Shown here: positions 5,733-62,631 of the stretch, piece by piece
How the letters are laid out: each line of letters opens with the position of its first letter
Numbering within the stretch: position 1 is the first letter of the stretch
Source: Oceanispirochaeta sp.
GTDB lineage: Bacteria; Spirochaetota; Spirochaetia; DSM-2461
NCBI GenBank assembly: GCA_963666275.2
Contig: CAXXOA010000002.1
Location: forward strand, 2,080,001-2,144,000
Length of the DNA stretch: 64,000 nt
Reading direction: 5' to 3'
The notes under the pieces: model-generated
Told to the model about the DNA's origin: nothing
The model's database searches: none
The model's input: only the letters and a program-made list of their open reading frames with translations
Position numbers and translations under genes: made by a program

Positions 5733-5757
5733 TATGAGACTGAAAGGAAAGGTTCCC

Positions 5758-45473: not shown

Positions 45474-45493
45474 ATTCAGTCCAAAGGCTCCGC

Positions 45494-46471: not shown

Positions 46472-46675
46472 CCTTTGAATCCTTTTTCTGCTGGTGTGTT
46501 TCAGTCGGCTCAGGGAATAAACCCTTGGGAAATAGCAAGATGTACTGAAAAACATCTTATTATTCTGAAGTGTAATACAAGGACGGAAGTCTATCAAATG
46601 CTGATTGATTTTCACTGATTCCTGTTCGGGGAATTGAAAGTTTACCGGAATGGGTCCTCCCTGGAAGAATCGCTC

Positions 46676-47860
46676 TTATATGTGATTTTTAAGCAGCCGG
46701 AACCAGAGGAGCACCAGGGCTGTAAAAACAGCAGCCGCCGGGAAAATGGCGCCCATACCGAAGAGATCTCCGATTCCGCCCCAGAGAACGGAACCGATGC
46801 CGATCCCCACATCCATAAAAAGATAGAATGTGGCATTGGCAAAAGCCCGCCTTGAAGGATTTGTCTTTTTGACTGCCGCCACATTGAAAAGGACATGGGA
46901 AAGGCCGAAACCCATACCATAGAGAAAGGCTATTGTGAAAATAAGGGGAGTGGTTCTGACAAGGTATACCCCCCCGATTCCCAGGATCATCTCTCCGATG
47001 GCCAGGCTGATCATCCGGCGTTCTCCCATCATTCTGATCATCTGGCCGGCAAAGACCCGGGAGAGAGTCAGACCAAGCGCTCTGGCAATGAAGAAGATTC
47101 CTATGCCGCTGATTTTCTCCACTTCCGCATAGGGCACAAGAAATGATGTGGTAGAGGCAGTTGCCATGGACAGACAACCAATAATAAAAGAAGGGGCAAC
47201 CGCTTTTCTTTCGACAATTTTGTCGATAAAGCGGCGGGTAGGAGAATCCGCCGTATCTGCTTTCCCGCCATCTGATGTATTCCGGAAAGACCTGTCCTTT
47301 TCATATGTAATAAATTTGAGGGATATTAAGGCTGCCGCCATGACAAGACCCGCAGAGAGAAAGAGCTCGGAAAAGCTGAATCGTTTGTAACTCCATATCG
47401 CCAGAAAGGGGCCGAGGGCCTGAGTCACTGTGGCTGTCAGTCCGAAATAACCCAGACCGTTGACCAGTTTCTCTTCCGGGACAATATCGGTGATTATTGT
47501 GGTCAGAGCGATGGACATCAGAGAAAAACTAAGACCGCTGACTCCCTGCAGCAGATAGAGCATGGTTATGTTACCGAAGAAGCCGAAAGGCAGGGTTGTC
47601 AGGGAAAAGAAGAGCATCCCTGTAAAAAGCATCTTTGTCCGGCCTGTTTTTTCAATGAGGTTACCGCTAATGGGGCGGAATACCAGAGCGAAGATAGTGA
47701 ATACGGTCATTGCCAGACCAGCCTGCATCTTCGTATACCCCAGAGATATCATATACAGGGGAATCAGTGTTATTTTATACTGCATTGCCAGGCGCATAAG
47801 CAGAGATGCCGTGAATGCCATATTATAGTCGGTGGTGAATAGGCTGTTCTTCTTTTTCAT
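46676..47860 (-). CDS. MFS transporter
   Basis: RPISGNLIEKTGR motif A; about 12 TM segments. Confidence 0.9.
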   Translation of the reverse strand: MKKKNSLFTTDYNMAFTASLLMRLAMQYKITLIPLYMISLGYTKMQAGLAMTVFTIFALVFRPISGNLIEKTGRTKMLFTGMLFFSLTTLPFGFFGNITMLYLLQGVSGLSFSLMSIALTTIITDIVPEEKLVNGLGYFGLTATVTQALGPFLAIWSYKRFSFSELFLSAGLVMAAALISLKFITYEKDRSFRNTSDGGKADTADSPTRRFIDKIVERKAVAPSFIIGCLSMATASTTSFLVPYAEVEKISGIGIFFIARALGLTLSRVFAGQMIRMMGERRMISLAIGEMILGIGGVYLVRTTPLIFTIAFLYGMGFGLSHVLFNVAAVKKTNPSRRAFANATFYLFMDVGIGIGSVLWGGIGDLFGMGAIFPAAAVFTALVLLWFRLLKNHI

Positions 47861-48080
47861 ATTTTCCCGGATTTTCTGTGCAGTATACTCAGATTTCCTG
47901 ATATTAAATGGTAATTTCATATCAGGAATTTGTATAGTAATAGAATAAATATTTTATGCTTACCTAATATCCTTTTCTCTGATTTTTCCATTCGGTCTGT
48001 CAAAAGGGATAAAACCGGCTTCCGGACATGCCGTTTTCATACCTCCTTCCTGTAGGGATTTGTCCACTGAAACGCTGGGT

Positions 48081-49157
48081 TCAGGCCTTCTGAAATTTTA
48101 TCCGTGAAAGTTTGTAAAGCTCCTCCCTGAAAGATCCGGGAAGCATAGTGTTCACCACATGGTTCATAAGAGCCGGTTTGCAGGGGTCACAGAATTTCTC
48201 AACAAAATCCCGGGCGCTCTGCTTCAGGGTCTCCGGCGTCTCACTGTCGTAGCTCTCCGGGATAACTCCAACAACCAGCTGATCTCCATACTCCTCGTAA
48301 ATTTTATGGGTATCATTGATAATCTGCGGGGACCATACATCCCATCCGGCGTTTATAATGGAAGGCACTCTCATATCCAGCAGTCCGCAGCTGTGAAATT
48401 CCGCAATTCTTCCTCTGCTGTGGATATGGTCGGTCAGACGCTTCATGGCCGGAACAATCATCTCTTCACAGGCTTCTTCAGAAAACAGGGGCCCTCTCTG
48501 GGAACCCCAGTCATCATGGACCAGAAATCCGTCGGCATGAAAATAGTCTATGAAATGATCGACAATCTGAATATAAAGGTCTGTCAGTTTCTCGAACAGC
48601 TCCAGAACCGCCTCTTTCTGTGTATCGTCTATCAGGGCTATAGAGGCATTTCCAAAATCCATAAAGGAAATCAGACGTTCGAAGTAGCCGCTGAAGATGG
48701 TTGTAAAGACCGCCCGGTCGTCGGCAAGGAAGTCTTTATTCTTTTCGGCGGTCTCCTTCCAGTCCCAGGATTCAACATCCGGCCAGATCAGTTTGTCCCT
48801 CCACTCATTGGCATCAGTAAAAAGATGGTAAGACGGATCCACGGCAGAGCCCCGGTTCTCCGGATTGTAATGCCATAGAACTCCGAACATATCCGGACCG
48901 CCATAGGTATCCGGAGAAACCGGTAGTTCCTGAATAATAAATCCTCTTGCCAGATTATCCGGAATGATATCGGGACAGAAAGTCATCTTCTCCACTCCTG
49001 TCAGCTGCCAGAGGGGAGCCTTTTTCAGACCCCTCCGGTAGGCTTCTCCCGGGGCAACCGGAAAGTTGTAAAGAGGAATCACAGGACGCCCCAGCCGTGC
49101 GGGAGGTATCTCCTCTACTATTTTCAGTTCATTTTCTGAAAAAATTATCGTTTCCAT
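48081..49157 (-). CDS. Uroporphyrinogen decarboxylase/MtaA-CmuA superfamily protein
   Basis: DMFGVLW, FERL, HDDWGSQ, FHSCG. Confidence 0.8.
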   Translation of the reverse strand: METIIFSENELKIVEEIPPARLGRPVIPLYNFPVAPGEAYRRGLKKAPLWQLTGVEKMTFCPDIIPDNLARGFIIQELPVSPDTYGGPDMFGVLWHYNPENRGSAVDPSYHLFTDANEWRDKLIWPDVESWDWKETAEKNKDFLADDRAVFTTIFSGYFERLISFMDFGNASIALIDDTQKEAVLELFEKLTDLYIQIVDHFIDYFHADGFLVHDDWGSQRGPLFSEEACEEMIVPAMKRLTDHIHSRGRIAEFHSCGLLDMRVPSIINAGWDVWSPQIINDTHKIYEEYGDQLVVGVIPESYDSETPETLKQSARDFVEKFCDPCKPALMNHVVNTMLPGSFREELYKLSRIKFQKA

Positions 49158-49187
49158 ATTTTCGTCCCCATAGGATAATCTCTCATA

Positions 49188-50399
49188 TCAGATGATCCCT
49201 TCGTTTTCCAGATATTTTATTTTATCTTCACTGAACCCCAGAAAATCCGTGTATATTTCCCCATTGTGCTGCCCCAGGTCGGGAGCGGGTTTTACTGGAA
49301 CATAGGTGTCGGACATTCTGTAGGCAGACCCGCAGAGTGTAATTTCTCCCAGGCTGGGATGATCAATGGTCTGAAGGAAGTTAGACTCGTACATATCAGG
49401 CGAGTTGACCACATCGGCGATGGTAAGAGTGGCACCGCAGGGAATCATTCTTTCGCACATAATGCGCATGACGTCTTCCTTGTCCAGAGAGGATGTCCAT
49501 TTGATAACTTCTTCTTCCAGGGAATCCACATTATCCAGCCGGGTGGAACCGTCTATGTATCTGGGATCTTCGAACAGATCCATTCTGCCGATGCCTTCGC
49601 AGAATTTCTTCCACATGATCTGCCCCGGAGTATCCCGTACCAGTATGAAGACATAGTTGTTTTCGTCTCCCTCAAACCGGGGTTTGGTGGGAAACATATT
49701 CCGGGGAGCATTCCGTCCGGCAAAAAGCATGGCACCGCCCCTTTTGGGCATCTCCTTCTGTTCCACAAAGGACATTCTGGACGAGGAAATCACGACTTCC
49801 TGCATATTGATTCTCAGATGCTGGCCCCGTCCGGTTTTCTCTCTCTGGAAGAGGGCTGCCAGGATACTGGATACCGCATAGTGTCCGGAAGGGTCATCGG
49901 CCAGTCCAACCGAGGAGATAAGGGGAGGTCCGTCGAGCATTCCGGTCTGGCTGGCCAGGGTTCCGGTAGCCTGAACCGGTCCGTCCATGGCGGGGAAATT
50001 CGCATAGGGACTGTTCTCATGATACCCCTTGATCTGACAGAAGATACAGCGGGGATTGATCTCTTTGATGGTATCAAAAGTGAATCCCAGCCGCTCAAAT
50101 GTTCCGGGGGCAAAGTTTTCAATGATCACGTCTCCCTTTTTGATAAGCTCTTTCAGAACCTCTTTTCCCCCGTCGCTTTTCAGATCCAGTGTGATGGATT
50201 TTTTATTGGCATGGAGAATGGCCCAAAGCATGTTCTGACCGCCTCCTCTGGGACGTCCCTGTTCTCCCTCTCCGGGTCTTTCCACCTTGATTATATTGGC
50301 ACCCATCTGGGCCAGTGTGAGGGTACAGATCGGTCCGCTGGCAAACTGGGTCAGGTCTATCACATTAATCCCTTCCAGGGCATTGGCTTTTCCACTCAT
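49188..50399 (-). CDS. Family III CoA-transferase (CaiB/BaiF/Frc)
   Basis: LEGINVIDLTQFASGP, NKKSITLDLK, ENFAPG, catalytic Asp region GLADD. Confidence 0.93.
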   Translation of the reverse strand: MSGKANALEGINVIDLTQFASGPICTLTLAQMGANIIKVERPGEGEQGRPRGGGQNMLWAILHANKKSITLDLKSDGGKEVLKELIKKGDVIIENFAPGTFERLGFTFDTIKEINPRCIFCQIKGYHENSPYANFPAMDGPVQATGTLASQTGMLDGPPLISSVGLADDPSGHYAVSSILAALFQREKTGRGQHLRINMQEVVISSSRMSFVEQKEMPKRGGAMLFAGRNAPRNMFPTKPRFEGDENNYVFILVRDTPGQIMWKKFCEGIGRMDLFEDPRYIDGSTRLDNVDSLEEEVIKWTSSLDKEDVMRIMCERMIPCGATLTIADVVNSPDMYESNFLQTIDHPSLGEITLCGSAYRMSDTYVPVKPAPDLGQHNGEIYTDFLGFSEDKIKYLENEGII

Positions 50400-50420
50400 T
50401 TTGTCTCTCCTTTATGGTCG

Positions 50421-51728
50421 TTATTTTCCTCTTTTGGGAAGTATTCTCTTTTCAATAAGATTTTCTACCTGAGCCACCATATTCTCCTGGCTCCATTTTT
50501 TAGCATCCGCCGGATCGGCTCTCAGAACACAGACGGGAAATCCCGCTTCCTCCAGAGACCAGACGATATTGTAGAAGAAGTCCCCGTTGTTCATGCAGTT
50601 TTCAGGCACCAGGAAGACGATCCCGTCGATCTGGTTGTTTTTGGCTTCTTTCACAAACCACTGACTGTTGAAGGGGGGAACATGGAGGATATCCTCCAGG
50701 AAGGAAAACCGTGAGGCCAGTGCCCGGATGGGATTCTCTTCCACTTTGTTCCGGATATAACCGTCCGCAGCCAGGCCCAGGTACATGGTCCATACAAAGG
50801 CCGCACCGTATTTCTCTTCGAAGTGCTGGTAGAAGGCCAGGTTGAACCAGAGCCCCCGTCCGATCCAGAGAAGGCGGACATTTTCATTGGGAACCGCGGC
50901 AGTCTGATTGTCCACCAGAGCTTTCACCTCTTCGTAGAGGCTTTTAGCCATTTCCACTGCTTCGGCAGATCCTCTGTGCCACTGGGCTTGCATAACCGCA
51001 TTGATCGTATCCGTTACGGTGACAGGGGCCGGAACCGTACGGGCTATAAGATCTCTTGTTTTCCGGTACCATCCCTCCTGGGCGTTTACATTGTTCAGAG
51101 TTTCAATCAGCCGGTTCAGATCCAGTTTTCTTCCGGTGGTTCTTTCCAGAAATTCCACAAGAAGTCTCAGTTCCTGTTCGTAGAAGTCGATTCTGTTTTT
51201 TCCCAGAAGGGTTTCCCAGTCATCAGGAGATTTCTCCCACCAGTTATCCAGAATCACATCCTGATGATAGTGCTGTATCCTGAAGGCCTCGGCGTTGAAG
51301 GCTTCGGTCATCAGTTCTTCGATTTTAATCCCGCTGGAACAGGTTTCCGCACAGATCACCAGAGAGGGGTGGGGAAGGCCTCCCCAGGGGCCCTCTTCCG
51401 GTTTGGCATCCAGGGAGCAGGCATAGGCGGCGGCACAGTAGGAACAGATATCATTTCTATAGCCCGCCTGTTCCAGAAGATCGTAGAACCGGGGGCCCAT
51501 CTGCTTAGCCGAACAGATGGCCGTCCACCATTGGTTGACCACAAAGGGAATATCCATGGCCCGGAGCAGTTCCATCGGAGCATTGGCACCCACAAAACCG
51601 AAAGGCTCTCCCGCTTCCACTCTGGCATGAAGGCCCATAAACCACTCTTTCTGGAATTTCCCTACCATTCGGGTCGTTTCCAGCTTTTTTACAGACCTGG
51701 TGCTGTATTGTTTCTTTTCTTCAGCCAT
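50421..51728 (-). CDS. 2-hydroxyacyl-CoA dehydratase/benzoyl-CoA reductase family subunit (Cys ligands retained)
   Basis: DICSYC, ETCS, ENC motifs; FLERTTGRKLD...L.E; DGIV. Confidence 0.85.
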   Translation of the reverse strand: MAEEKKQYSTRSVKKLETTRMVGKFQKEWFMGLHARVEAGEPFGFVGANAPMELLRAMDIPFVVNQWWTAICSAKQMGPRFYDLLEQAGYRNDICSYCAAAYACSLDAKPEEGPWGGLPHPSLVICAETCSSGIKIEELMTEAFNAEAFRIQHYHQDVILDNWWEKSPDDWETLLGKNRIDFYEQELRLLVEFLERTTGRKLDLNRLIETLNNVNAQEGWYRKTRDLIARTVPAPVTVTDTINAVMQAQWHRGSAEAVEMAKSLYEEVKALVDNQTAAVPNENVRLLWIGRGLWFNLAFYQHFEEKYGAAFVWTMYLGLAADGYIRNKVEENPIRALASRFSFLEDILHVPPFNSQWFVKEAKNNQIDGIVFLVPENCMNNGDFFYNIVWSLEEAGFPVCVLRADPADAKKWSQENMVAQVENLIEKRILPKRGK

Positions 51729-52896
51729 TTTTCCGCTCCCGCTTCACTGTTTCCGCAAATTTGGTGCATCGGTCCAGAATGGAATCCGGATCCTTCAGCG
51801 GGTAGTACTGATCCTCAATGGTGAGGATCCTGATACCCATTTTATCCAGTTCTATTTTCAGCTTGGGAAGGTCCCATATGTAGGACTCGTCGTTGTGATT
51901 CATAAAAATGACAACAGCTTCGGCTCCCGTTTCTTTTACCCTCTCAGGCAGGGCCTGAGCTCTGTCTTTTATAAAGGCCCTTTCACTGCTGGGAAACCGG
52001 TTATGGTATCTGTCCGCAATGGCTCTTGCCGGAGGACGGGCGGTATCAGTCTCTCTGTCCGTATAGCGGTCCCCGGGAACTTTATCTTCACACACCACAT
52101 TCAGTCCGGCATTCTGCAGAATCTCATATACTTCGGTTGTATCCTGCATACTTCCTGTATAGAGGCATCTTACGTTTTCCAGGACGGGCCATCCGGCCGC
52201 ATCTTCTGTAAGAGCCCGGAGCAGTTCAATGGCTTTCTTTTTTTCCAGATAAAAAGATCCGGCCAGGACTGTGAGAGCTTCACTTCCGGTGATCCGGCTT
52301 TCAGGACCGAACCGGAGGGCGGAAAAATCTCTCAGGGCAGCCTTGTAGGCATTACAGAGTGTGATTGCTTCGGCCAGATCTCTGTCACTGATCTTTTTCC
52401 CGGTCCACTCTTCCACCCTTGTCTGAAACCTCTGGGTTTCCCTCCAGTTCCGTTCCCGGGTTCTGAACTCCTTGTTGACAAGCCAGTAATCCACGTATTC
52501 GATGTCGGGCAGCCTCCGCTCAGGCTCGATTTTTTTGAGCTGAACCAGATAGTAGAAGAGTTTTTGAATGATATCGGACGAGTTGGACAGAACCAGATAG
52601 TCCATGATATCCGAATGCTCATCGTTCATGATTGTTTCAAACAGCCCTCTCCAGAGGGCTCCGAAAGACATTTCCAGATATTTATCTGCATTCGGACGGT
52701 TGTCGGGGTGTCCCCAGAGTCTGACCGGAATCAGGTCCGCCGCCATGAGGATCTCTTCGGGAACTTCATCTCCCAGCATCCAGGCTGTCTTTTTTCCACT
52801 CAGCATAAGATTCAGAATCGATTCATGTTTATGATCAAATGCCCTTTTAAACTCATTATATGCGGCACTTTCCAGTGCACATGGTCTTGTAGCCAA
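51721..52896 (-). CDS. 2-hydroxyacyl-CoA dehydratase family subunit (BcrC/HgdB-like; cluster Cys apparently absent)
   Basis: VPEEILMAADLIPVRL, EEWTGKKISD..L.EAI, GAEAVV...GIRILTIE; TTG start after AGGAGG. Confidence 0.8.
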   Translation of the reverse strand: MATRPCALESAAYNEFKRAFDHKHESILNLMLSGKKTAWMLGDEVPEEILMAADLIPVRLWGHPDNRPNADKYLEMSFGALWRGLFETIMNDEHSDIMDYLVLSNSSDIIQKLFYYLVQLKKIEPERRLPDIEYVDYWLVNKEFRTRERNWRETQRFQTRVEEWTGKKISDRDLAEAITLCNAYKAALRDFSALRFGPESRITGSEALTVLAGSFYLEKKKAIELLRALTEDAAGWPVLENVRCLYTGSMQDTTEVYEILQNAGLNVVCEDKVPGDRYTDRETDTARPPARAIADRYHNRFPSSERAFIKDRAQALPERVKETGAEAVVIFMNHNDESYIWDLPKLKIELDKMGIRILTIEDQYYPLKDPDSILDRCTKFAETVKRERKNG

Positions 52897-52945
52897 TGAA
52901 CATACCTCCTTTATGAACGGATAATCCTGTAGTTGATTAAAAATG

Positions 52946-53015
52946 ATGCTACCATGTTTATTTTTTGATTTCTAACACCAAAAGAAACGTATCACTACAA
53001 CAGAAAGATTGTAGT
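52946..53015 (-). promoter_or_regulatory. Promoter with dyad operator for the dehydratase/CoA-transferase operon
   Basis: ACTACAA-N8-TTGTAGT (52994-53015) and TGGTAGCAT -10 on the minus strand; architecture duplicated at 54224-54293. Confidence 0.7.
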
Positions 53016-53104
53016 AGATGGTCTGGATAGAGTTTCAGCGTGTAGAAGAGTGCAAATATTGCAATAATTTTAATAAATACTGTTTTTCTGTTTTAGTGAA
53101 CCTA

Positions 53105-53129
53105 TGGTATAATGTCGAACATGTTCGAC
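53105..53129 (+). promoter_or_regulatory. lysR extended -10 with 16-bp perfect palindrome
   Basis: TGGTATAAT immediately followed by GTCGAACATGTTCGAC. Confidence 0.5.
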
Positions 53130-53146
53130 GAAATGAGGGAGACCGT

Positions 53147-54118
53147 GTGACTATATTGAATCTTCATATGTTTGTGGAAATCGTCAAAGATATGAATCTG
53201 TGTGTGACTGCCCAGAGATTGAATACCACCCAGCAGGGCTTGTCGGGTCATATCAAACGTCTTGAGACTCACTTTGGTGTCCGCCTGTTTGAGCGTAATC
53301 CCCGTCTTCTACTGACTTCCGAAGGAAACTTCCTGCAGCGGGAATCAAAGAGCATCCTGGATGCGGAACAGAGAATTTTTACCCATTTCGGAACGGGAGG
53401 AAAGTACCACTCCGGCAGTATCAGGGTTTCCTGCGGTATGGCCCGGGCCCGGTACAGCCTTCCCCATATAATCAGTGAGTTTACCTCCCTTTACCCCTCG
53501 GTCAGTGTGAATCTGGTGGATGAGAATACGTTACGCGAAACAGATGTGTTCTCGGAAGCTAAAGTGGATATGGTCATAGGCCGTCCGGTTAAAACATCCA
53601 GCCAGGTCATGGAGATTCCTCTCATAGATCTTCAGGGGTTTATTATGGTCTCTGATTCGCTGCTGAGAAAAAGTCTGAAATCGGGAACAGAAAACTTTAT
53701 CAGAAACGCTCAGGGAGGAGTGGAGGTAAAGGATATTCCCGGGGACATACCCATGGCCTTCCCGGGGGTCATGAAAAAGGAGCCCTGGATCTGTGAGCAG
53801 ATCCCCGAACTCCGGAGCAGACCCCGGGTTTCGGTAGACCGGGAGAACTATGATATCCTTGTCGGTTTGTGCCGGGAGGGAAAGATGATGATGCTTATCT
53901 CCGAGATGTACCTTCACTTTATCAAGAAAACCTACTCATCCCAGTTCTATGAAAATATCCATTTCTTTCCCCATATTCAGGAGGGCTGCCGCTTTATCGA
54001 GCATGAGGTCCTCTCTTATGACGCCAGTAAGTACCATCCCCAGTATTTCCAGGACTTCATCAGTATTATCCTGAAGGAGTTTCAGGGAATCCGGCATGAA
54101 TTCGATGAGTGCCGTTAA
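53147..54118 (+). CDS. LysR-family transcriptional regulator
   Basis: TAQRLNTTQQGLSGHIKRLETHFGVRLFER HTH; LTSEG; GSIRV. Confidence 0.9.
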   Translation: MTILNLHMFVEIVKDMNLCVTAQRLNTTQQGLSGHIKRLETHFGVRLFERNPRLLLTSEGNFLQRESKSILDAEQRIFTHFGTGGKYHSGSIRVSCGMARARYSLPHIISEFTSLYPSVSVNLVDENTLRETDVFSEAKVDMVIGRPVKTSSQVMEIPLIDLQGFIMVSDSLLRKSLKSGTENFIRNAQGGVEVKDIPGDIPMAFPGVMKKEPWICEQIPELRSRPRVSVDRENYDILVGLCREGKMMMLISEMYLHFIKKTYSSQFYENIHFFPHIQEGCRFIEHEVLSYDASKYHPQYFQDFISIILKEFQGIRHEFDECR

Positions 54119-54223
54119 GCCCTTTTCTGAATATTCCGGACTCCTTTCTCGTTTTTCAGACCCCGCCGCATCTCCTGTCTCCCGTTCCGATCGAATCCTC
54201 CTGTCAGAGCAGATTATTTTTTT

Positions 54224-54293
54224 ACAACAACAATAATGTTGTAGTAGTACCCGTATTTTGATGTTAGCGTGCCAAAAAATCCTATGATAGCAT
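54224..54293 (+). promoter_or_regulatory. Promoter with dyad operator for the TRAP/CoA-transferase operon
   Basis: ACAACAA-N8-TTGTAGT (54224-54245) and TGATAGCAT -10, same spacing as the divergent promoter. Confidence 0.7.
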
Positions 54294-54343
54294 TCTTTTA
54301 AAAGGTTGAAATTTGTGAATCAAAGCTCACAAAAGGAGGAATA

Positions 54344-54823
54344 ATGAAGCGATTAATCACCTTTACCGACTTCCTGGCCAGGGGAGTTGTTCTTTTTTCC
54401 TGTGTCTCTTTATCCCTGGTTGTTCTAATAATCGCAGTCAATGTTATTGGAAGGGCCTTTAATCATCCGATTCCCGGAGGTTATGATCTGACCATACTCT
54501 GTTCCGCAGTTTCGGGGAGTCTGGCAATTGCTTACACCACAAAACAATGTGCCCATGTGAGCGTCGATATTGTTACAAATATCCTGCCCCCTTTCCTTAA
54601 AAGAATCCAGAGTATGATAACCCATCTTGTGGCGCTGTTCATCTTTGTGATACTGGCCTGGCAGGCTGCGATTGTCTTTGTGGAACGGTTCCACGGAGAG
54701 CTGACGGACACTCTGAGGATCCCCATCTGGCCCTTCCGGCTGATATGGCTCTTTTCCATGTGCTGTTCAATCCTTTTCTGTGTCACTCAATTCATCATAG
54801 CTATGCTGGGAGGTGAAGAATAA
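54344..54823 (+). CDS. dctQ: TRAP small permease
   Basis: Four TM segments, NVIGR, HVSVD. Confidence 0.9.
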   Translation: MKRLITFTDFLARGVVLFSCVSLSLVVLIIAVNVIGRAFNHPIPGGYDLTILCSAVSGSLAIAYTTKQCAHVSVDIVTNILPPFLKRIQSMITHLVALFIFVILAWQAAIVFVERFHGELTDTLRIPIWPFRLIWLFSMCCSILFCVTQFIIAMLGGEE

Positions 54824-56130
54824 TGGATCCTATTACAATAGGTATTATCGCCATAATACTTCTGGTTGTTCTGATGGGAATCGGGATACCTATAGGGTTT
54901 GTCATGATGATCCTGGGGTTTGCGGGAGTGGCGATTCTGGTGAATCCCTCTGCGGCCCTTATGAAAATGGCTGTGATTCCCTTCAGTTTTGTATCCAACT
55001 ATGACTTTGCGGTTATTCCCATGTTTATGCTCATGGCGAATATCATCCTGGTCTCCGGACTGGGAACGGACCTCTACAGGATCGCTTCCAAATGGATGGG
55101 ACGCCGCAACGGGGGACTGGCCGTGGCCACCACTGTGGCCTGTGCGGGATTTGCCGCTATCAGCGGTTCCGGGCTGGCTACTTCGCTGACAATCGGTCAG
55201 ACCGGCATGCCGGAAATGAAGAAATATAAGTATGACACCGCATTTTCCGCCGCAGTTATCTGTTCCAGCGGAACCATCGGTCTTCTTATTCCTCCCAGTA
55301 CGGCTCTGATGGTGTACGGTATTGTGACGGGAACTTCCATCCGGAGCTTATTTATCGGAGGTTTTATTCCCGGTATCACTCAGGCTCTCTTCTATATCGT
55401 TCTGATCTCTATCATGACCCGGATCAAACCGTCCCTGGGACCCCACAGCGACAAGGCCTCTTTCAAAGAGAAGCTGCTCTCCCTGAAACAGGGGATTGAT
55501 ATTATTATCCTGATCTCCTTTGTTTTCTTCGGTATGCTTTTCGGCTGGTTCACTCCCACCGAAGCCGGAGCCATGGGTGCGGCGGGAGCCTTCCTGATAA
55601 CCATCGTCCGGAAAAGGATGGACTGGGAAGGATTCAAGTCGGCCATCCGGGATACCATCAAGATTTCAGGAATGTACTTTCTGATCCTGATCGGAGCCCA
55701 GATGTTCATGTACCTGACCTCCGTCACAACCCTTCCCCGGGTGGTGGCACTCTGGGTCGGCGGACTGGATGTGGCTCCCATGACAATTATGCTGATTATG
55801 ATGGGAATCTATATGATTCTGGGCTGTTTCATGAGCGGCAATGCCATCATGATGCTGACTATCCCCATCTTCTTTCCCATTGTTATTCAGCTGGGATTCA
55901 ATCCTATCTGGTTCGGAATCCTCCTTACCAGAGTTTCCGAGATCGGCCAGCTGACTCCTCCGGTGGGACTGGGTGTTTACAGTATTCAGGCCATTCTGCC
56001 TGAAAAAGTTCCCATTCACCGGATTTTCAAATGGACCGCATGTTTCGTCGGTGCCGATGCGCTCCATCTGCTTCTGCTTCTGCTCGTACCGGCTGTGACT
56101 TTGTTTCTACCAATGCTTTTTGCAGGTTGA
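54823..56130 (+). CDS. dctM: TRAP large permease
   Basis: IPMFMLM, FAAISGS, LIPPS, FTPTEA, TPPVG. Confidence 0.93.
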   Translation: MDPITIGIIAIILLVVLMGIGIPIGFVMMILGFAGVAILVNPSAALMKMAVIPFSFVSNYDFAVIPMFMLMANIILVSGLGTDLYRIASKWMGRRNGGLAVATTVACAGFAAISGSGLATSLTIGQTGMPEMKKYKYDTAFSAAVICSSGTIGLLIPPSTALMVYGIVTGTSIRSLFIGGFIPGITQALFYIVLISIMTRIKPSLGPHSDKASFKEKLLSLKQGIDIIILISFVFFGMLFGWFTPTEAGAMGAAGAFLITIVRKRMDWEGFKSAIRDTIKISGMYFLILIGAQMFMYLTSVTTLPRVVALWVGGLDVAPMTIMLIMMGIYMILGCFMSGNAIMMLTIPIFFPIVIQLGFNPIWFGILLTRVSEIGQLTPPVGLGVYSIQAILPEKVPIHRIFKWTACFVGADALHLLLLLLVPAVTLFLPMLFAG

Positions 56131-56154
56131 AAATAATAAAGAAAGGAGAATTCT

Positions 56155-57252
56155 ATGTTTACAAAAAGGAAAAACAGTTCTGTTTTACTGGCTGGTCAGA
56201 TTCTGGTTCTTATCCTGGTGGTTGGGCTCAGCGGATGCAGTAAAAAAACAGAGACCGCTTCCGGCGAAAAGTCAGAGAAGGCGCTCACAGAAATGAAGAT
56301 GACCTTCGCGGCTCCCCATACACCTCCCCAGACCTATGCTCAGGTGGATGTGGCTTTTACGGATCATATGAAAGAGGTTTCGGGAGGTAAAATCAATTTC
56401 ACCTACTATCCCGGAGGAACTCTGATCGGCGGAAGCGAAGCTGCTGCGGAACTGAAAGCCGGTGCAGCCGATTTCGGATGGCCCCGGGTAGGTTACTCCA
56501 AGCACGGGTATAAACTCTATAATGCCAACCTGATCTGGATGTACAACCTGGATCCGGTCGAGGATGTTGAAGCGGAACTGGAAATCTATAAAAAGCTCTA
56601 CGAACTGGAACCCATGTATTCCGAGTTTGACGGTATCGTTCCCTACGGTGCGAATGCTTCCGGTACAACAGCATGGCTTTTCACCAATAAACCCATTGAG
56701 TCTCTGAAAGATATCAAGGGAATGACCATCCGGGCTAATGCCGCCTGGGCCAAGGTTGTGACCGAACTGGGAGGCGTTCCCCTGAATATGCCCTTTTCCG
56801 AGCTCTATCTTGCCATGGAAAAAGGAACCATCGACGGAATCCTGGGACTGCCCGGTACGGTTATCAAAGGGGAAAATCTGGGAGAAGTTATCGATTATGC
56901 CATGGATATCAAGATGAACCAGAGCCCCTATTACGCCTGGGCCTTCAATGAAAAATCCTGGAATGAGATGCCCGCTGAAGCTCAGGAAATGTTCAAATCC
57001 GAAGAGGGATGGATTGAACAGAGGGTCGTTGACCAGCTTCAGGGAGAGAACGGACCTTCCATCGAATATGGAAAGGCTCTGGGAATCAACTTCCTTGATA
57101 TCTCAGAAGAAGATAAAAATATGTTATACGGCATTATGGACAGCGTCTGCCGGGAAAACTGTGCCGTTCTGGACGGAGAAGGCTACCCTGCCACAGAAAT
57201 GTACGAATACACCCAGAAACTGATCAAAGAGTTCAAAGACTCCCAGTCCTGA
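56155..57252 (+). CDS. dctP: TRAP substrate-binding lipoprotein
   Basis: Lipobox LSG-C, YPGGTL, DIKGMTIR, MEKGTIDG. Confidence 0.9.
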   Translation: MFTKRKNSSVLLAGQILVLILVVGLSGCSKKTETASGEKSEKALTEMKMTFAAPHTPPQTYAQVDVAFTDHMKEVSGGKINFTYYPGGTLIGGSEAAAELKAGAADFGWPRVGYSKHGYKLYNANLIWMYNLDPVEDVEAELEIYKKLYELEPMYSEFDGIVPYGANASGTTAWLFTNKPIESLKDIKGMTIRANAAWAKVVTELGGVPLNMPFSELYLAMEKGTIDGILGLPGTVIKGENLGEVIDYAMDIKMNQSPYYAWAFNEKSWNEMPAEAQEMFKSEEGWIEQRVVDQLQGENGPSIEYGKALGINFLDISEEDKNMLYGIMDSVCRENCAVLDGEGYPATEMYEYTQKLIKEFKDSQS

Positions 57253-57312
57253 TAAATCTCACCCGGGACAACCTTTTTCTCAGGCTGTCCCAAAAAATCT
57301 GAAAAGGAAGAA

Positions 57313-58530
57313 TTGATGAATAACACAGCATTAGAAGGCATCCGGGTTGTGGACCTGACCCAGTTTGAAGCGGGAACGGTCTGTACCATGTCTCTGGCAT
57401 GGATGGGTGCTGAAGTCATTAAAGTAGAACATCCGAAAAGGGGCGCCGGGGGAAGATTCTCCTTTGAGGATCCCGGACAGGACTGCAAGGGATTTCTTAT
57501 TATGAATGCCAATAAGAAATCGGTAACCCTGGATGTCAAATCTGAAAAGGGAAAAGAGATCCTGACAGATCTTATCCGCAACGGCGATGTGCTTGTTGAA
57601 AATATGGGCCCCGGTACCATTGAGCGTCTGGGTTTTGACTATGAGACCGTCAAAGCGATCAACCCGAAGATCATTTTTGCCCAGATCAAAGGCTTCGGAA
57701 AAGACAGCCCCTATGCGAAATTCCCCGCTTTTGCTCCCATCGGACACGCCACAGGCGGTGCAGCCAGCATTACCGGCGACCCTGAAGGTCCTCCCATGCA
57801 GATGGGTGTGAATGTGGGTGACAGCGGCCCCGGATATCTCTGCGCTATGGGGATAGTTTCGGCCCTCTATCAGAGAAATACAACCGGAATAGGCCAGAGG
57901 ATCGAAGTGACCATGCAGGAGAGTGTGATCGCCTTCGGCAGATCCGCCTGGGAACAGCAGTACCGGACAGGCAAAGCCGCTCCCCGGGCCGGAAACGGTA
58001 TGCCCCTGGAAAATGTGGCCCCTGCGGGAATGTACCCCTGCAAACCCTTCGGCCCCAATGACTATGTTCATATTTATATTTCCCGGCATCCCGGATCCAA
58101 ACAGTGGGATCTGTTTTGCGAAACTATCGATAGAACCGATCTGCTTGAGGATGAGAGGCTGAAAACACCCCAGTCCCGGTACAACTACCGGGAAGAGCTG
58201 AACACCATCATTGGTGAGTGGACCTCCCAAAGGACAAAGCATGAGGCTATGGAAACGCTGGCTCTGGCGGGAATTCCTGCGGGTGCCACTCTGGATACGA
58301 TGGAGATTACCAACGATCCCTATCTGAGAGAGCGGGGCATTATTTCAGAAGTGGAACATCCTTTTCACGGGAAAGTACTTATTCCCGGATTTCCTGTTCA
58401 TATGTCTGAAACAAAGGTTCCGGTACAGTGTGCCCCGGCTCTCGGCGCAGATAACAAAGTGATCTATCAGGATCTTCTGGGTATGACAGAAGCTGAACTT
58501 GATGCTCTGAAAGAGCAGAAAGTCATATAA
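57313..58530 (+). CDS. Family III CoA-transferase (formyl-CoA transferase-like)
   Basis: DLTQFEAGT, NANKKSVTLD, ENMGPG, catalytic Asp in VGDSGPG. Confidence 0.93.
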   Translation: MMNNTALEGIRVVDLTQFEAGTVCTMSLAWMGAEVIKVEHPKRGAGGRFSFEDPGQDCKGFLIMNANKKSVTLDVKSEKGKEILTDLIRNGDVLVENMGPGTIERLGFDYETVKAINPKIIFAQIKGFGKDSPYAKFPAFAPIGHATGGAASITGDPEGPPMQMGVNVGDSGPGYLCAMGIVSALYQRNTTGIGQRIEVTMQESVIAFGRSAWEQQYRTGKAAPRAGNGMPLENVAPAGMYPCKPFGPNDYVHIYISRHPGSKQWDLFCETIDRTDLLEDERLKTPQSRYNYREELNTIIGEWTSQRTKHEAMETLALAGIPAGATLDTMEITNDPYLRERGIISEVEHPFHGKVLIPGFPVHMSETKVPVQCAPALGADNKVIYQDLLGMTEAELDALKEQKVI

Positions 58531-58541
58531 AAGGAAATTTT

Positions 58542-59672
58542 ATGGACAAGGTTTCAATGGTTTTTGCCGGAGATATCATTCTGGGTGAGAATCCGGAGGA
58601 GTATTTCGGGAGCGTCGATCCTGTTCTGAGGAATACCGATGTGGTTGCCGGTCAGCTGGAGGTCCCCTACAGCAACAGGGCGCCGGAGCTGGCGGATCTG
58701 AATCGGCAGGTTGAAAACCTTGCTCCACTGAAAGAGTATTTTGACATTGTTTCTCTGGCGGGGAATCATATCTACGATGCAAAGGACCAGGGGGTCATCG
58801 ACACCCTCTCCTGGCTGGAGAACAATGCCATCCAGTATGTGGGCGGAGGCCTCAACAGGGCAGAGGCCAGAAAAGCCCGGATTGTAGAGAAACAGGGAAT
58901 CCGGATCGGATTTCTGAGCTATAACTGTACGGGGCCGTCGATCATGACTGCCACGGACTCCAAACCGGGTTGTGCTTCTGTTGATATTGTAACCCACTAT
59001 GAGCTGGGGGATATTGCCAATCCCGGGGGCCCTCCCGAATCGATCTACTCCTGGCCGGAACCGAAAAGCTACCGGAAGATGATAGAGGAGATCAGAGATC
59101 TCCGGACCAACTGCGATGTGCTCTGCCTTTACCTTCACAAAGGTCTGGTCCACAAGCCAATAAAACTGGCGGCCTACGAACAGCCTCTCTGTTACGGCGC
59201 CATTGATGCGGGGGTGGATATCATCTTCTGTTCCCATCCTCATATCCTTCACGGTATTGAGGTATACAGGGGAAAAACAATCTATCACAGTCTGGGGAAT
59301 TTTATAGCCTGGGTTCCCTCGCTCAGTCCCGGTTTCAAAGCGGTCCATGGTAAGAAAAATGAGTTTTTCGACCCGGAAGAGTGGGCTAAAACGCGGATTG
59401 AACGGTTTGGTTTTGTTCCCGATCCGGAGTATCCGACCTATCCTTTTCACAGTGAAGCCAGATTCTGCCTGATTGCCAGGTGTTATCTGGATAGAAGCGG
59501 AATCCTCAGTACCGGATGCGTTCCCATGATCGTGGATAAAAAAGGGGTTCCCCGTGTAGTAAAAAGAGTGGACGGGGGAGAGGAAGTCTTCAACTATCTG
59601 AAAATGATCACAGAGAAAGCCGGCCTGGAAGCGGAATTTTTCTGGGATAAAGAGGAAATACTGATCCGCTGA
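58542..59672 (+). CDS. CapA/PGA_cap family metallohydrolase (cytoplasmic)
   Basis: FAGDIIL, QLE, SLAGNHIYD, YLHKG, SHPHIL, HSLGNF; no signal peptide. Confidence 0.88.
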   Translation: MDKVSMVFAGDIILGENPEEYFGSVDPVLRNTDVVAGQLEVPYSNRAPELADLNRQVENLAPLKEYFDIVSLAGNHIYDAKDQGVIDTLSWLENNAIQYVGGGLNRAEARKARIVEKQGIRIGFLSYNCTGPSIMTATDSKPGCASVDIVTHYELGDIANPGGPPESIYSWPEPKSYRKMIEEIRDLRTNCDVLCLYLHKGLVHKPIKLAAYEQPLCYGAIDAGVDIIFCSHPHILHGIEVYRGKTIYHSLGNFIAWVPSLSPGFKAVHGKKNEFFDPEEWAKTRIERFGFVPDPEYPTYPFHSEARFCLIARCYLDRSGILSTGCVPMIVDKKGVPRVVKRVDGGEEVFNYLKMITEKAGLEAEFFWDKEEILIR

Positions 59673-61288
59673 TGAAAGAGTTTCTGAAATCTACCATAGG
59701 AGAAAAGCTGAAAGAGACAGCTCTGCATTTTCCTCTCAGGACTGCTCTGAAGTCAGAGCGGGAAACTCTCAGCTATAGGGAACTGGACCTGATTACCGAC
59801 CGTATTGCAGCCAATCTTCTGGGTCTGGGCCTGAAAGCGGGAGACAAGGTTCTTCTGGTGGATGATAATTCGCTGCGGGGGATCTCTTTTTTCTATGCTT
59901 TACAGAAGATCCGGGTCATTCCTGTTCTGACAGGACCGAAAATCCTGCCCGGAGCCCTCCAGAACCTGATTGATCTGGTTCAATCCGATTATCTGGCCAT
60001 GGGGAGCGGAAAACACGCTCTCGAGCTCATGGACCAGATCCGCCTGAACAAGACCGATCTGAAAAGCCGTCTGGTCTTTTCTCTGGGCTATGAAGGTTAC
60101 CCGGGGCAGGTTGATTACTGCAGTCTCATAAGGGAACCCCGGGAGGTAGATCGGAAACATCTGGAGAGAGTCTTCCGGCAGGCGGATCCGGATGATACGT
60201 CCAGCATCCTTTTTACTTCCGGTACCACAGGAGTTCCCAAAGGGGTCAAAACCAGTCATTTTTCCTGGCTCAACAGCGGCTATTTCCAGGCCATTGATCT
60301 CGAGGCGAGTGAAAAGGATGTGTTCTGCAGCGTTCTGCCCATGTATCACTGTTTCGGTTTAAGCACCAACATCATTGCGGCTATGACCATAGGGGCATCG
60401 GTAGTCCTTCCGGAAGACCGCAGTCCCCGGGGAATCCTGAACGTTATTGAACGGCACGGGTGTACAATCCTGAATGCGGTCCCAACTGTTTTCTATCGTA
60501 TCCTGACATCCGGCAATTACCGGAAAAACGACCTCTCCTCTCTCAGAACCGGTATCATCGGCGGTTCCGGGTGCAGTCCCTCATTTTTCCGGGGAATAGA
60601 AAAGTCCCTGGGTATGACCCTCCTTTCCAGTCTGGGAATGACTGAAGCCACAGCAGGGATCACTGTCAGCACCATGAATGATTCCCTCGAACTGCGTTCA
60701 TCCAGTGTGGGCCGCTTTATGGACTGTGTTGAGGGGGCTATCCTAGATCCCCGGACTGGGGATCTTCTTCTGCCGGGACAGGTGGGGGAGATCTGCATGA
60801 AAGGATACCTGCAGATGCAGGGGTATTACGGAGCTCCCGCTCTTACTGCCGAGGTGATAGACCAGAATGGATGGCTCCATACGGGAGATCTCGGTTATAT
60901 GGACCATCAGGGATATTTGTATCTGAAAGGCCGGATCAAAGAGCTGATTATCAAAGGGGGTGAGAATATCTGTCCCTGTGAGGTGGAAAAAGTCCTGCTG
61001 GAAAACAATAAAGTGGCGGAAGCCAAAGTGATCGGTGTTCCCGATCTGCATTACGGGGAGGAGCTGTATGCATTTATAGTTCCCCAGCAGAATCAGGAAC
61101 TCAAGCTGGAGGAGATCTCTGCCTATACCCGGGAAAGGCTAATCCGGTTCAAGATTCCCCGGTATTTTTCCATTGTCGGAAATCTGCCGAAAAATACTAT
61201 TGGCAAAATCCAGGTGGACCATCTCAGGGAGACCGCCGTGAGGAATCTGGAGAGTGCTGAAAACAAAAAACTCCGCTACTATGAATAA
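59672..61288 (+). CDS. AMP-binding acyl-CoA synthetase
   Basis: FTSGTTGVPKG, LPMYHCFG, LGMTE, GWLHTGDLG, GRIKELII, PKNTIGKI. Confidence 0.93.
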   Translation: MKEFLKSTIGEKLKETALHFPLRTALKSERETLSYRELDLITDRIAANLLGLGLKAGDKVLLVDDNSLRGISFFYALQKIRVIPVLTGPKILPGALQNLIDLVQSDYLAMGSGKHALELMDQIRLNKTDLKSRLVFSLGYEGYPGQVDYCSLIREPREVDRKHLERVFRQADPDDTSSILFTSGTTGVPKGVKTSHFSWLNSGYFQAIDLEASEKDVFCSVLPMYHCFGLSTNIIAAMTIGASVVLPEDRSPRGILNVIERHGCTILNAVPTVFYRILTSGNYRKNDLSSLRTGIIGGSGCSPSFFRGIEKSLGMTLLSSLGMTEATAGITVSTMNDSLELRSSSVGRFMDCVEGAILDPRTGDLLLPGQVGEICMKGYLQMQGYYGAPALTAEVIDQNGWLHTGDLGYMDHQGYLYLKGRIKELIIKGGENICPCEVEKVLLENNKVAEAKVIGVPDLHYGEELYAFIVPQQNQELKLEEISAYTRERLIRFKIPRYFSIVGNLPKNTIGKIQVDHLRETAVRNLESAENKKLRYYE

Positions 61289-61467: not shown

Positions 61468-62631
61468 ATGACTGGTCAAAGGAAAAACCCTGAAAAAGTG
61501 TCTGGAACAAATCCGCTTTACAGTGAAATATTTACCTCCGAATTCCTCCGGGGGGGGAATCATTCACAGAAATATCAACTGGTTTGCCTACTCGGTTATT
61601 CTTCTTTTCAGTCTATCCACCTGGCTTTTTCAGGGAAACAGCATTGCCGGGCCTGTAGGAGTGGCCCTAGCGATGTTTAATCTGGTATATAACTTTCTGA
61701 TCGGATATTTCATCAATGACTATAAAAGGATCCACTATATAGGTTATGTGACAATCACACTGAATATAATTTCCCTAACAGTCTATAACTGTCTGGATGC
61801 CATGAACAATTCATTATTCCTGCCGGCTACATCGGCTACACTTCTTCTGTTCCCAGTCATTATTTTTCTTGCCTCTCTGAGGATCAACCATAAACTAGTT
61901 ATTTTTTCGACAGTTCTTTCTGTTGCTTCAATGGATGGCCTTTACCTTTATGTCGCTCATTTTCATGATCTTGATATCCATACAAGTGCCCTCTCCACCG
62001 ACTGGCTCAGCCGGGGATATAGAACCATTTATCTGATTATGATCGGGTATATGATCTCCAGAATCCCGAAAACCATGTACAGGATTCTGGGAAAACAGGA
62101 AGTTCTGAGACAGGAGACTCTGGTTCATCAGACAAAAGCCGAAAAAGACCCGCTCACAACTTTACATAACAGGCATTATCTGAACTCCTACTTTGAAAAC
62201 TACCGTCAGGCCTCATGCCTGCAGAACCAGAAATTCGCTCTACTTTACATCGATATCAATGATTTCAAACAGATCAACGATACCTACGGGCATGACTATG
62301 GAGATTTTGTTTTAATCTCCCTGGGAAAGGATCTGAGATCTGCTGTAAGAGATGAGGATATTGTAGCCCGGCTGGGGGGGATGAACTTGTGATCCTTGTC
62401 AAACTCCAGCCGGACAGGAAGGGCCTTGATGAAATGACTCAGAGAGTCTCCCGGGCGGTTGCCAGCCCCCGCAGCTTTCAGGATGTGACATTTCATATCA
62501 AATGCAGCATCGGGGTCGCTGTCTATCCGGATAAAGCTTCCTCACTGGATGAGCTTCTGAAGAAAGCGGACCAGGCTATGTATTCCGTCAAAAAACAGAA
62601 AAAACACGGCGTGGCCTACTGTTCCGGGTAA
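61468..62631 (+). pseudogene. Membrane diguanylate cyclase (GGDEF) interrupted at poly-G tracts
   Basis: TM region, DPLTTLHNR, DINDFKQINDTYGH, RLGG/DEL split by G7 (62374-62380); probable second shift at G8 (61550-61557); SIGVAVYP...ADQAMY in the downstream frame. Confidence 0.8.

Follow-up and report, generated by a model that had tools for sequence, protein, structure and literature searches.

In two reports, the enzymes of the HAD/BCR family are described as radical, cluster dependent, and ATP activated (PMC11971306, PMC11574389). HadBC is portrayed there as passing an electron from its activator to the cluster of the beta subunit and on to that of the alpha subunit, which makes a ketyl radical (PMC11574389); in BzdO, Glu65 is placed beside the open iron, and an aryl-CoA is bound (PMC11971306). 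Here, we describe a branch of this fold in an island of twelve genes at positions 46676 to 61288 of a 64,000-nucleotide stretch of Oceanispirochaeta sp. DNA (assembly GCA_963666275.2, contig CAXXOA010000002.1, positions 2,080,001 to 2,144,000; the window, meaning the whole stretch analyzed). The island encodes an alpha/beta pair of the HGD-D fold, two family III CoA-transferases (CT1 and CT2), a LysR-type regulator, a TRAP importer, a CapA-like protein, a UROD-like protein, an acyl-CoA ligase, and an MFS transporter. Judged from its sequence and those of its relatives, the pair falls outside the canonical radical 2-hydroxyacyl-CoA dehydratases, because the beta ligands are gone, the acid/base Glu has become Gln, no activator is linked, and the alpha ligands have been lost in relatives. 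We consider it very probable that the pair acts without a radical and independently of an activator.

Cluster ligands and acid/base residue of the paired subunits

Two sets of relatives were compared. A scan of 185,579 species genomes gave 106, and the best 80 entered the comparison (“80 genome loci,” 1.34 Mb); since contig ends cut many of them (65/80 are at least 12 kb long), their neighbor counts are lower bounds. The 85 further loci (0.94 Mb) comprise 80 metagenomic loci, picked with an alignment of distant members, 4 plasmid loci, and 1 locus from an actinobacterial genome; the hosts of these are presumed to be aerobic.

The beta subunit aligns to HadC (3o3m_B; E value, 3e-14) and BzdN (E value, 1e-18) and has no Cys at the three cluster-ligand sites, nor are the ligand cysteines present when it is aligned to the canonical beta subunit of its own genome (Cys74/101/326). 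The sites are without Cys in all 77 beta rows (the window and 76 loci; 3 of 79 sequences, shorter than 340 residues, were dropped); column 107 and sites 1 and 3 are Cys free, and in 7/77 rows a Cys lies no more than three residues away from site 2. Among distant rows, Cys occurs at site 1 in 0/50, at or near site 2 in 17/52, and at site 3 in 2/55, so that no distant row can hold all three ligands. In sphingomonads the beta subunit is shortened to about 293 residues.

The alpha subunit keeps C95, C130, and C378, which align with the HadB ligands, plus C98. Its AlphaFold2 model (predicted local distance difference test score, 91) superposes on 3o3m_A with a Z score of 39.6 and a root mean square deviation of 2.2 Å over 392 residues, and the family motifs are NQWW, PWGGLP, QWHRG, and WxGRGxW. 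Q66 replaces the acid/base Glu at the position of HadB Glu55 and BzdO Glu65. Glu55 has a catalytic role in HadB; at this position, 88 of 89 dereplicated family rows have Gln and 23 of 33 outgroup rows have Glu. The three alpha ligands have been lost together in 14/80 genome loci and in 63/77 aligned metagenome and plasmid rows. The 14 loci belong to anaerobes, stand at about 50% identity, and are nested among cysteine-bearing kin, with replacements of Cys by Asn/Asp, Gly, and Asp; in the sphingomonads, only C378 is lost. On a FastTree tree built without the ligand columns, the ligand state changed at least six times. The cluster thus appears, from this comparison, to be dispensable in the family, because the alpha ligands, too, are missing from close relatives. 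C98 forms a CxxC motif with C95 in 25/25 cysteine-bearing family rows and in 12/33 outgroup rows, and it might fill the fourth iron site, making the site structural. The initial annotation proposed an Fe-S transformation; with no cluster ligands in beta, the acid/base Glu replaced, and close relatives also lacking the alpha ligands, that description is not supported in its original form. The island is a half-degenerate anaerobic member of a dehydratase-fold branch.

A family-specific set of polar alpha residues (Q66, Q249, H251, R252, N215, Q217, R225, D322, and R340) is strongly conserved. This argues against a purely noncatalytic role, in which the pair would bind acyl-CoA or act as a scaffold serving the transferases; every known catalytic element has been lost, and beta is reduced to about 293 residues in sphingomonads, as such a role would allow, yet many loci hold no other candidate catalyst for a CoA ester, and we judge this explanation very improbable. 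Cys72 was considered as a catalytic nucleophile and rejected: it is invariant in 81/81 close rows but Val, Ile, or Ala in most wider relatives. Natural beta-alpha fusions frequently link the two subunits, one genome (G311) holds three paralogous pairs, and an ESM Atlas search returned HGD-D clusters only.

Activators and redox partners

By tblastn with one query of each, the island holds no activator, D-2-hydroxyacid dehydrogenase, acyl-CoA dehydrogenase, or ETF-alpha, in agreement with what the initial annotation had noted for the activator, 2-hydroxyacid dehydrogenase, acyl-CoA dehydrogenase, and ETF; the sole match in the window was a 78-residue stretch at 17440, aligned to the N-terminal part of the query. 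The relatives are similar: an activator is present in 0/80 genome loci and 0/85 further loci, an acyl-CoA dehydrogenase in 2/80 and 1/85, and a D-2-hydroxyacid dehydrogenase in 1/80 and 0/85.

Some observations weigh against activator-independent action. The genome has a stand-alone activator, encoded on contig C3 within a canonical activator-alpha-beta cluster; TIGR00241 is matched in 48 of 50 host genomes, which rules out a general lack of activators in the hosts; and the window alpha subunit, like those of 66/80 genome loci, retains all three ligands. Supply of an activator in trans is possible. The pair could then still be a radical 2-hydroxyacyl-CoA dehydratase that works with the alpha cluster only, possibly aided by a beta-bound flavin, and relies on the activator encoded in the C3 cluster. 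The alignment of C95/C130/C378 with the HadB ligands, the fold match, the stand-alone activator, and the 52% identity between the window ligase and the ligase beside the canonical cluster are consistent with this, and some dehydratases carry a flavin too, according to one report (PMC11574389). We regard it as unlikely, however: besides the missing beta ligands and acid/base Glu, the family occurs in aerobes, and orthologues at 49 to 51% identity have no alpha ligand at all. Moreover, among the matches listed, 11 of the 50 host genomes, most of them incomplete metagenome-assembled genomes, have no stand-alone activator; two of these (G305, the host of the syntenic island L012, and G323) have no activator match, and the other nine, among the matches listed, have only long fused frames of at least 950 residues.

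The C3 cluster (activator, alpha, beta, transferase, and ligase) served as an internal control. It spans C3:38640-46090 (L088) and consists of activator, alpha, beta, transporter, and CoA-transferase genes with a divergent ligase gene, followed by GntR and FAD/CCG oxidoreductase genes.

Island layout and shared operator

The twelve genes named by the initial annotation were all found, intact and in place, by open reading frame listing and by Pfam and NCBIfam scans, and the listed genes pass the Pfam cutoffs except where noted. The features are as follows.

46676..47920, minus strand: MFS transporter (PF07690), with orthologues in both syntenic spirochaete islands (L011, 42%; L012, 52%)
48081..49157, minus strand: UROD/MtaA-fold protein (PF01208, 28.2 bits versus a cutoff of 23.9)
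49188..50399, minus strand: family III CoA-transferase CT1, Frc-like (PF02515)
50421..51728, minus strand: HAD/BCR-fold alpha subunit (HGD-D)
51721..52896, minus strand: HAD/BCR-fold beta subunit (HGD-D)
52972..53013, minus strand: left-arm operator (palindromic box 1, 52996-53013; box 2, 52972-52983)
53147..54118, plus strand: LysR-type regulator (PF00126, PF03466)
54226..54267, plus strand: right-arm operator (box 1, 54226-54243; box 2, 54256-54267)
54344..57252, plus strand: TRAP importer (dctQ, 54344-54823; dctM, 54823-56130; dctP, 56155-57252)
57313..58530, plus strand: family III CoA-transferase CT2 (PF02515)
58542..59672, plus strand: CapA/PGA_cap metallophosphatase-fold protein (PF09587)
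59672..61288, plus strand: ATP-dependent acyl-CoA ligase, AMP binding (PF00501)

The left arm, in the order beta, alpha, CT1, UROD-like gene, and MFS gene on the minus strand, diverges from lysR, whereas the right arm, preceded by a separate operator, lies 3' of lysR in the same orientation. Within the arms, gaps range from -8 to 60 nucleotides, the alpha and beta genes overlapping by 8; the listed MFS frame lies 160 nucleotides behind the UROD-like gene, and its true start is probably downstream of the listed ATG. For lysR, the start is most likely GTG 53147 (323 residues), which has a ribosome binding site and agrees with homologue starts, and not ATG 53018. Scans for sigma-70 promoters and terminators stayed at chance level. 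No tRNA, boundary repeat, or Rfam match was found in the island, and hence no insertion mechanism.

Each arm is preceded by one copy of an 18-bp palindrome, HACAAY-N6-GTTGTR (box 1); the window has two copies versus 0.02 expected, a figure that is flattered because the pattern was taken from these sites. The 5.27-Mb genome contains seven copies of the palindrome alone and exactly two of box 2, which lies 12 nucleotides downstream of box 1, one per arm. Among 192 loci, 11 carry the palindrome: 3 are this same island, 7 are loci with a LysR orthologue (L008 to L013 and L021; 42 to 71% identity), and 1 is another locus. The left-arm operator is kept upstream of the beta gene in L008 to L012 and L021, and box 1 of the right arm also precedes dctQ in L011 and L012. 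The LysR protein likely binds both operators, because the palindrome co-occurs with LysR orthologues; the two arms would thus form one LysR-linked regulon with a shared two-box operator, that is, a coregulated module. A search with the operator for further regulon members in other genomes gave no convincing targets, most matches lying inside genes or before unrelated genes.

The shared operator, here and in L011 and L012, also bears on whether two modules, each for one of two related substrates, have been joined in the island as a mosaic under one regulator, the left one holding the pair, CT1, and the UROD-like protein and the right one (TRAP, CT2, CapA, and ligase) taken from the commoner clostridial type, in which case the genes would not form one linear pathway. 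CT1 orthologues occur only alongside window-type alpha subunits (L011, L012, L015, L017, and L019), in four genomes a bare lysR-beta-alpha set and a CT2 orthologue (56%) lie at separate places, and G311 with its three paralogous pairs fits this arrangement as well. Since L013 and L014 combine a window-type alpha subunit with a CT2-type transferase, and the arms share one operator, we consider a mosaic decidedly unlikely.

Distribution and origin of the module

The 80 genome loci derive mostly from Clostridia and Coriobacteriia of guts and digesters, plus two Spirochaetia (L011 and L012), whose layout is that of the island as far as the contigs reach. A beta gene is present in 79 of them, a family III transferase in 69, CapA in 32, a glycyl radical enzyme in 17, a UROD-like gene in 12, a ligase in 10, and DctM in 3; carriers are of the CitMHS (28), Opp (16), and MatC-like (13) types, and regulators of the PucR (39) and LysR (19) types. 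The core, a beta-alpha pair with a family III CoA-transferase, is found in 69/80 genome loci, and it also occurs on plasmids of aerobic sphingomonads; CapA and the TRAP importer frequently accompany it. The 85 further loci include a transferase in 65, CapA in 29, and DctM in 18 (33, 19, and 17, respectively, among the 35 loci of at least 12 kb). The alpha gene is also present, at 34 to 37% identity, in seven plasmid records from aerobic Croceicoccus, Novosphingobium, and Rhizobium, and on the three of these that are annotated the gene order is CocE hydrolase, CapA, dctQM, short beta, transferase, alpha, dctP, hydrolase, and transferase, which is the cast of the window in a reshuffled order. 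As a measure of background, the 5.27-Mb genome has one CapA-like match at an E value of <1e-15.

The gene set therefore recurs in other genomes, which speaks against a chance assemblage and disposes of the refuting condition set in the initial annotation, that the genes are not coconserved, and the module for uptake and CoA activation of a carboxylate proposed there emerges as both coregulated and coconserved. Two of its epithets are not supported. The island was called self-contained, whereas the ligase and UROD-like genes are local accessories (10/80 and 12/80 loci) and likely partners, namely a corrinoid protein, a RACo activator, and glycyl radical enzymes, lie elsewhere in the genome; and it was called anaerobic, whereas the same module sits in aerobic sphingomonads.

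Searches of 40 relatives, including ten congeners, did not reveal the beta gene, and among 300 further genomes from the phylum no match to the alpha profile was obtained. The ABC-F flank is matched in five congeners, one of which also matches the dctP/kinase flank, with no gene-length match to the island. The GC content at third codon positions is not atypical. The island is accessory and was probably acquired laterally, because beta and alpha were not found in relatives and congeners hold the flanks only. Trees were made with FastTree only; L093 sits at an odd long-branch place and the CapA tree carries long-branch warnings, so neither was used for dating or for naming donors.

Several relatives depart from the common layout. 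In L092 (11866-13968), L093, and L094, double-length family III CoA-transferases of about 700 residues, with a degenerate N-terminal half and an intact C-terminal half, sit between the shortened beta (about 293 residues) and alpha on sphingomonad plasmids. In L016 (295-8057), L018, and L084, an acetoacetate-CoA-ligase-family gene precedes the pair in place of the transferase; L016 also encodes a beta-keto acid cleavage enzyme, a cyclase, and a 3-hydroxyacyl dehydrogenase, which may hint at a product of the 3-hydroxy or 3-oxo type. In L033, L035, and L037 (Youngiibacter and a relative), a beta-oxidation set comes after the module, with genes for LysR, ligase, family I transferase, thiolase, SDR, and MaoC. 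Y. multivorans turns cinnamate into benzoate.

The surroundings of the island are as follows. At 43833-46615 (minus strand), abutting the MFS gene, an orphan DctP-type protein gene lies directly upstream of a histidine kinase gene; the two probably form a periplasmic sensor pair and have a counterpart in a congener without the island. At 61523-62392 (plus strand), a GGDEF domain ends at profile position 81 of 161, at the GGDEF motif itself (GGMNL, then a stop), and the gene is probably frameshifted or truncated. An IS200-like transposase gene (34195-34716, minus strand) lies inside a low-GC stretch (34 to 36 kb, 38 to 42% GC). Genes for cobalamin biosynthesis and uptake (cbiD, cobQ, cbiK, and an iron/B12-type ABC system) occupy 1200-8634, with a cobalamin riboswitch at 4625-4777.

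Transferases, ligase, CapA-like and UROD-like proteins, and importer

CT1 and CT2, 42% identical to each other, match PF02515 over its full length and keep the Asp at the catalytic position, a column invariant in 71/71 rows; this Asp is catalytic in Frc. CT2, with Asp170, is the orthologue of the core transferase (48 to 59% identity to clostridial copies). The best NCBIfam model for CT1 is formyl-CoA transferase, under the cutoff, and with the Frc equivalog TIGR03253 the two transferases score 322 and 354 bits, below its cutoff of 504.2. The nearest relative found for the ligase is that beside the canonical C3 cluster (52%), and ligases at 26 to 43% identity are present in 10/80 loci; the protein likely primes a CoA loop.

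For the CapA-like protein, which the initial annotation took for a hydrolase, the only solved relative found is MslH, described as epimerizing a C-terminal residue through His88/Asp91 and His295/Asp11 dyads (PMC10406935). The residues D11, E40, N75, H76, D79, H199, and H234 match those of MslH and are invariant in 43/43 rows; the dyads H76/D79 and H234/D11 correspond to the MslH dyads, D11 and E40 being placed by motif position only. Of the metal-ligand positions, Glu44, Asn87, and His259 are kept, while that of His261 is Gly with an invariant neighboring Lys, and the score with NF038314 is 47 bits versus a cutoff of 700. The protein is likely a C-alpha epimerase or a hydrolase, and an epimerase seems at least as likely, because the MslH-matching residues are invariant even though His261 is replaced.

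The UROD-like protein has DDWG and HxCG motifs, with H255, D215, and D216 invariant in 16 rows. No solved relative was found by phmmer; its AlphaFold2 model (score, 92) gives a Z score of 19.9 to MtaA (4ay7). The UroD superfamily includes phenolic O-demethylases (PMC10418091). The protein is likely an aryl-methyl-ether:corrinoid methyltransferase (O-demethylase) but may instead be a decarboxylase. A corrinoid protein and a RACo activator are encoded about 125 kb from the island. They stand alone at C2:2265939-2269705 (L182 and L184), with no methyltransferase gene recognized alongside, and at least four scattered UROD-like genes in the genome could use them.

A glycyl radical enzyme gene, mostly with a GC(L/V)D loop, is also present in 6 of the 12 loci with a UROD-like gene. 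The genome itself has two such enzymes: that at C2:421994 is 62 to 80% identical to eight neighbor copies and has the same carrier and PucR regulator, and that at C3:55690 is accompanied by a UROD-like gene, a DUF3237 gene, and a BD-FAE esterase gene. Their operons (C2:420584-426245, L192; C3:50110-61879, L191), both with MatC-like carriers, are likely linked modules.

The TRAP set (dctP, dctQ, and dctM) is complete. DctP, a lipoprotein by prediction, has the Arg that binds carboxylates (R193). DctM joins 21 module-linked DctMs with a FastTree support of 100, whereas 13 paralogues from the same genome fall outside that group, which indicates that the importer travels with the module. The MFS protein likely serves product export or as a second importer.

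Nature of the substrate

Neighbors of the module point to aromatic compounds. On plasmids, they encode a p-hydroxycinnamoyl-CoA hydratase/lyase, an acetate-CoA-ligase-family protein, an aldehyde dehydrogenase, DUF3237, a P450, and a tannase/feruloyl esterase; across the 85 further loci, PaaX occurs in 7, P450 in 14, and CocE in 11. The same families of CocE (E values, 1e-121 to 1e-158), alpha/beta hydrolase (E value, about 1e-51), and DUF3237 are each present in 3/80 clostridial or spirochaete loci, and in L011 two DUF3237 genes and a carboxylesterase gene lie directly behind the UROD-like gene. DUF3237 includes the PhcF and PhcG enzymes, which act on an 8-5 diferulate-type acid, and gut flora cleave 8-O-4 diferulate. 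The top DctP matches (7NR2, 4PGN, and 5IM2) bind aromatic acids.

Other data count against such a substrate. The direct aromatic markers are a minority (hydratase/lyase in 3/85 loci, a folate-binding demethylase-like protein in 3/85, and DUF3237 in 4/85), and the island itself has neither an esterase nor an aromatic-ring enzyme. The fold search with the UROD-like protein ties methyltransferase with decarboxylase (Z score of 19.4 to UROD, 4exq), and DctP has low identity to any solved binder (best E value, 2e-18). The commonest importers of the clostridial loci, CitMHS (28/80) and MatC-like (13/80), fit aliphatic di- or tricarboxylates as well, and the transferases, scoring best on formyl-CoA:oxalate transferase, fit aliphatic acids as well. 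The same nonradical CoA loop could accordingly act by retro-aldol cleavage on an aliphatic di- or tricarboxylate bearing a hydroxy group and resembling tartrate, citramalate, or citrate; this might be the acid portion of a hydroxycinnamoyl ester, caftarate for example. A tartrate-dehydrogenase-like gene in 4/80 loci, MmgE/PrpD in 5/85, aldolase and enolase-family genes in the Rhizobium locus, and alcohol and aldehyde dehydrogenase genes behind the third paralogous pair of G311 would suit an acid of this kind. We hold this alternative to be possible yet doubtful, given the PaaX, P450, hydroxycinnamoyl-CoA lyase, DUF3237, and UROD-like neighbors and the unusual richness in Trp of the invariant residues of the family. 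A diacid with aryl groups would satisfy both lines of evidence. All in all, we favor an aromatic plant-derived acid as the probable substrate.

Proposed route

That the pair is a nonradical lyase or hydratase whose substrate is the CoA ester of an aromatic acid of plant origin, and that it works within a CoA-recycling loop, has, in our estimate, an even chance of being right. We infer each reaction, and the substrate, from the observed gene content, operators, coconservation, and residue losses. An esterase encoded outside the island, as neighbors in relatives suggest, would free the acid, and the TRAP system would import it. The CapA-like protein, going by its residues, would then invert a C2 stereocenter, making both isomers usable, or hydrolyze a conjugate. 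CT1 and CT2 would load CoA, with the CoA ester of the pair's product as the donor, and the ligase would prime this loop. The alpha/beta pair would perform enolate-type chemistry (retro-aldol or other C-C cleavage, beta-elimination, or hydration), the alpha cluster being at most a Lewis acid or a structural site. Finally, the UROD-fold protein may move aryl O-methyl groups onto the corrinoid protein of the genome, and the MFS protein may export the product. Such a nonradical, CoA-recycling route explains the minimal unit of pair, transferase, and importer, the lack of redox partners, and the use of the module in aerobes.

A more specific version is tentative and rather doubtful: the pair would be a cofactor-independent C-C or C-O lyase, derived from a radical enzyme by shedding of the electron relay, and would split, as CoA thioesters and with neither oxygen nor ATP, dimer acids of the ferulate or lignin type (8-O-4 or 8-8 diferulates or beta-aryl-ether gamma-acids). 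If so, clostridia of guts and digesters, spirochaetes, and aerobic degraders of lignin would all use one module, the CapA-like protein would epimerize racemic dimers, and paralogous pairs would take different linkage isomers. A cell-wall phenolic dimer as the substrate would make this an oxygen-independent step in fiber and lignin breakdown.

Databases label these genes 2-hydroxyacyl-CoA dehydratase, so that amino acid fermentation is probably wrongly inferred for gut genomes that carry them. The branch comprises 240 representatives at E values of ≤1e-30, lower-scoring ones being three-cysteine outgroup proteins; as a widespread branch that dropped the relay, it would be a case of a fold reused for other chemistry, and the island and its clostridial kin would preserve a halfway state of relay loss. 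Because cysteine-bearing and cysteine-free orthologues at about 50% identity exist, the role of the cluster is directly testable.

Comparison with known systems

The literature searched, which left out most subscription journals and supplements, held no relevant description of the gene set or the family, only unrelated papers for PF06050, and only plant cell wall and lignin chemistry papers for diferulate cleavage; island proteins stay below the cutoff of every equivalog model for Had, Bzd, Bcr, Frc, and MslH. The fold is thus known, while the branch and pathway are apparently undescribed in that literature, in line with the initial annotation, which could match the island to no described pathway.

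HadBC (3O3M; activator, HadI; transferase, HadA), FldBC, and HgdAB share with the island the HGD-D heterodimer fold (19% identity to HadBC), the three alpha ligand cysteines, and an adjoining family III CoA-transferase. Unlike in HadBC, the island beta subunit has no ligand cysteines, Glu55 is Gln and Ser37 is Ala, no activator, hydroxyacid dehydrogenase, acyl-CoA dehydrogenase, or ETF is linked, the alpha cysteines are dispensable in relatives, and members occur in aerobes. BzdNO (8S02), MbdON (9G87), and DCCP (7YYL) have the same fold (Z scores of 37.8, 35.3, and 30.4, respectively), and the BzdO ligands Cys95/128/380 fall at the positions of C95/C130/C378. BzdN, however, has a double-cubane cluster and works with an ATP-dependent activator, whereas in the island the N-like subunit lacks the ligands and the Glu65-type residue of the alpha subunit is Gln. 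The class I BCR models (Bzd/Bcr/Mbd) give the pair 64 and 65 bits versus cutoffs near 450, and neither a cluster-bearing N subunit nor the ATP-binding P/Q subunits have a counterpart in the island.

Frc/YfdW (1PQY, 1P5H) is the best solved relative of CT2 (E value, 2e-73) and has the Asp at the catalytic position in common with it, but scores remain under the NCBIfam cutoffs and a different sequence stands in place of the glycine-rich loop; the recurring neighbors of the module showed no oxalyl-CoA decarboxylase. MslH (8GQ9) resembles the CapA-like protein in the PF09587 fold, the two dyads, and the Glu44/Asn87/His259 positions, features that may be general to the family and are no proof of an epimerase; it differs in that its His261 position is Gly in the island protein and that the island context is catabolic, not that of a ribosomally synthesized and posttranslationally modified peptide. 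The UROD-like protein shares a TIM-barrel fold and an HxC motif with MtaA (4AY7), and phenolic O-demethylases of the OdmB/VdmB type are members of the same superfamily; structural identity is 11%, and no corrinoid protein gene recurs beside the UROD-like gene.

FerA and FerB constitute a hydroxycinnamoyl-CoA ligase and hydratase-lyase route. This nonredox cleavage of the CoA ester of a phenylpropanoid is of the type of chemistry proposed here, although it uses a crotonase fold and ATP-dependent activation. Genes of this type stand beside the module in 3/85 loci, which suggests that the substrate of the pair is a different one, probably upstream. To these systems, the present locus adds an anaerobic half-degenerate state, repeated loss of the alpha ligands, a shared operator, and a link between aerobic and anaerobic carriers of one module.

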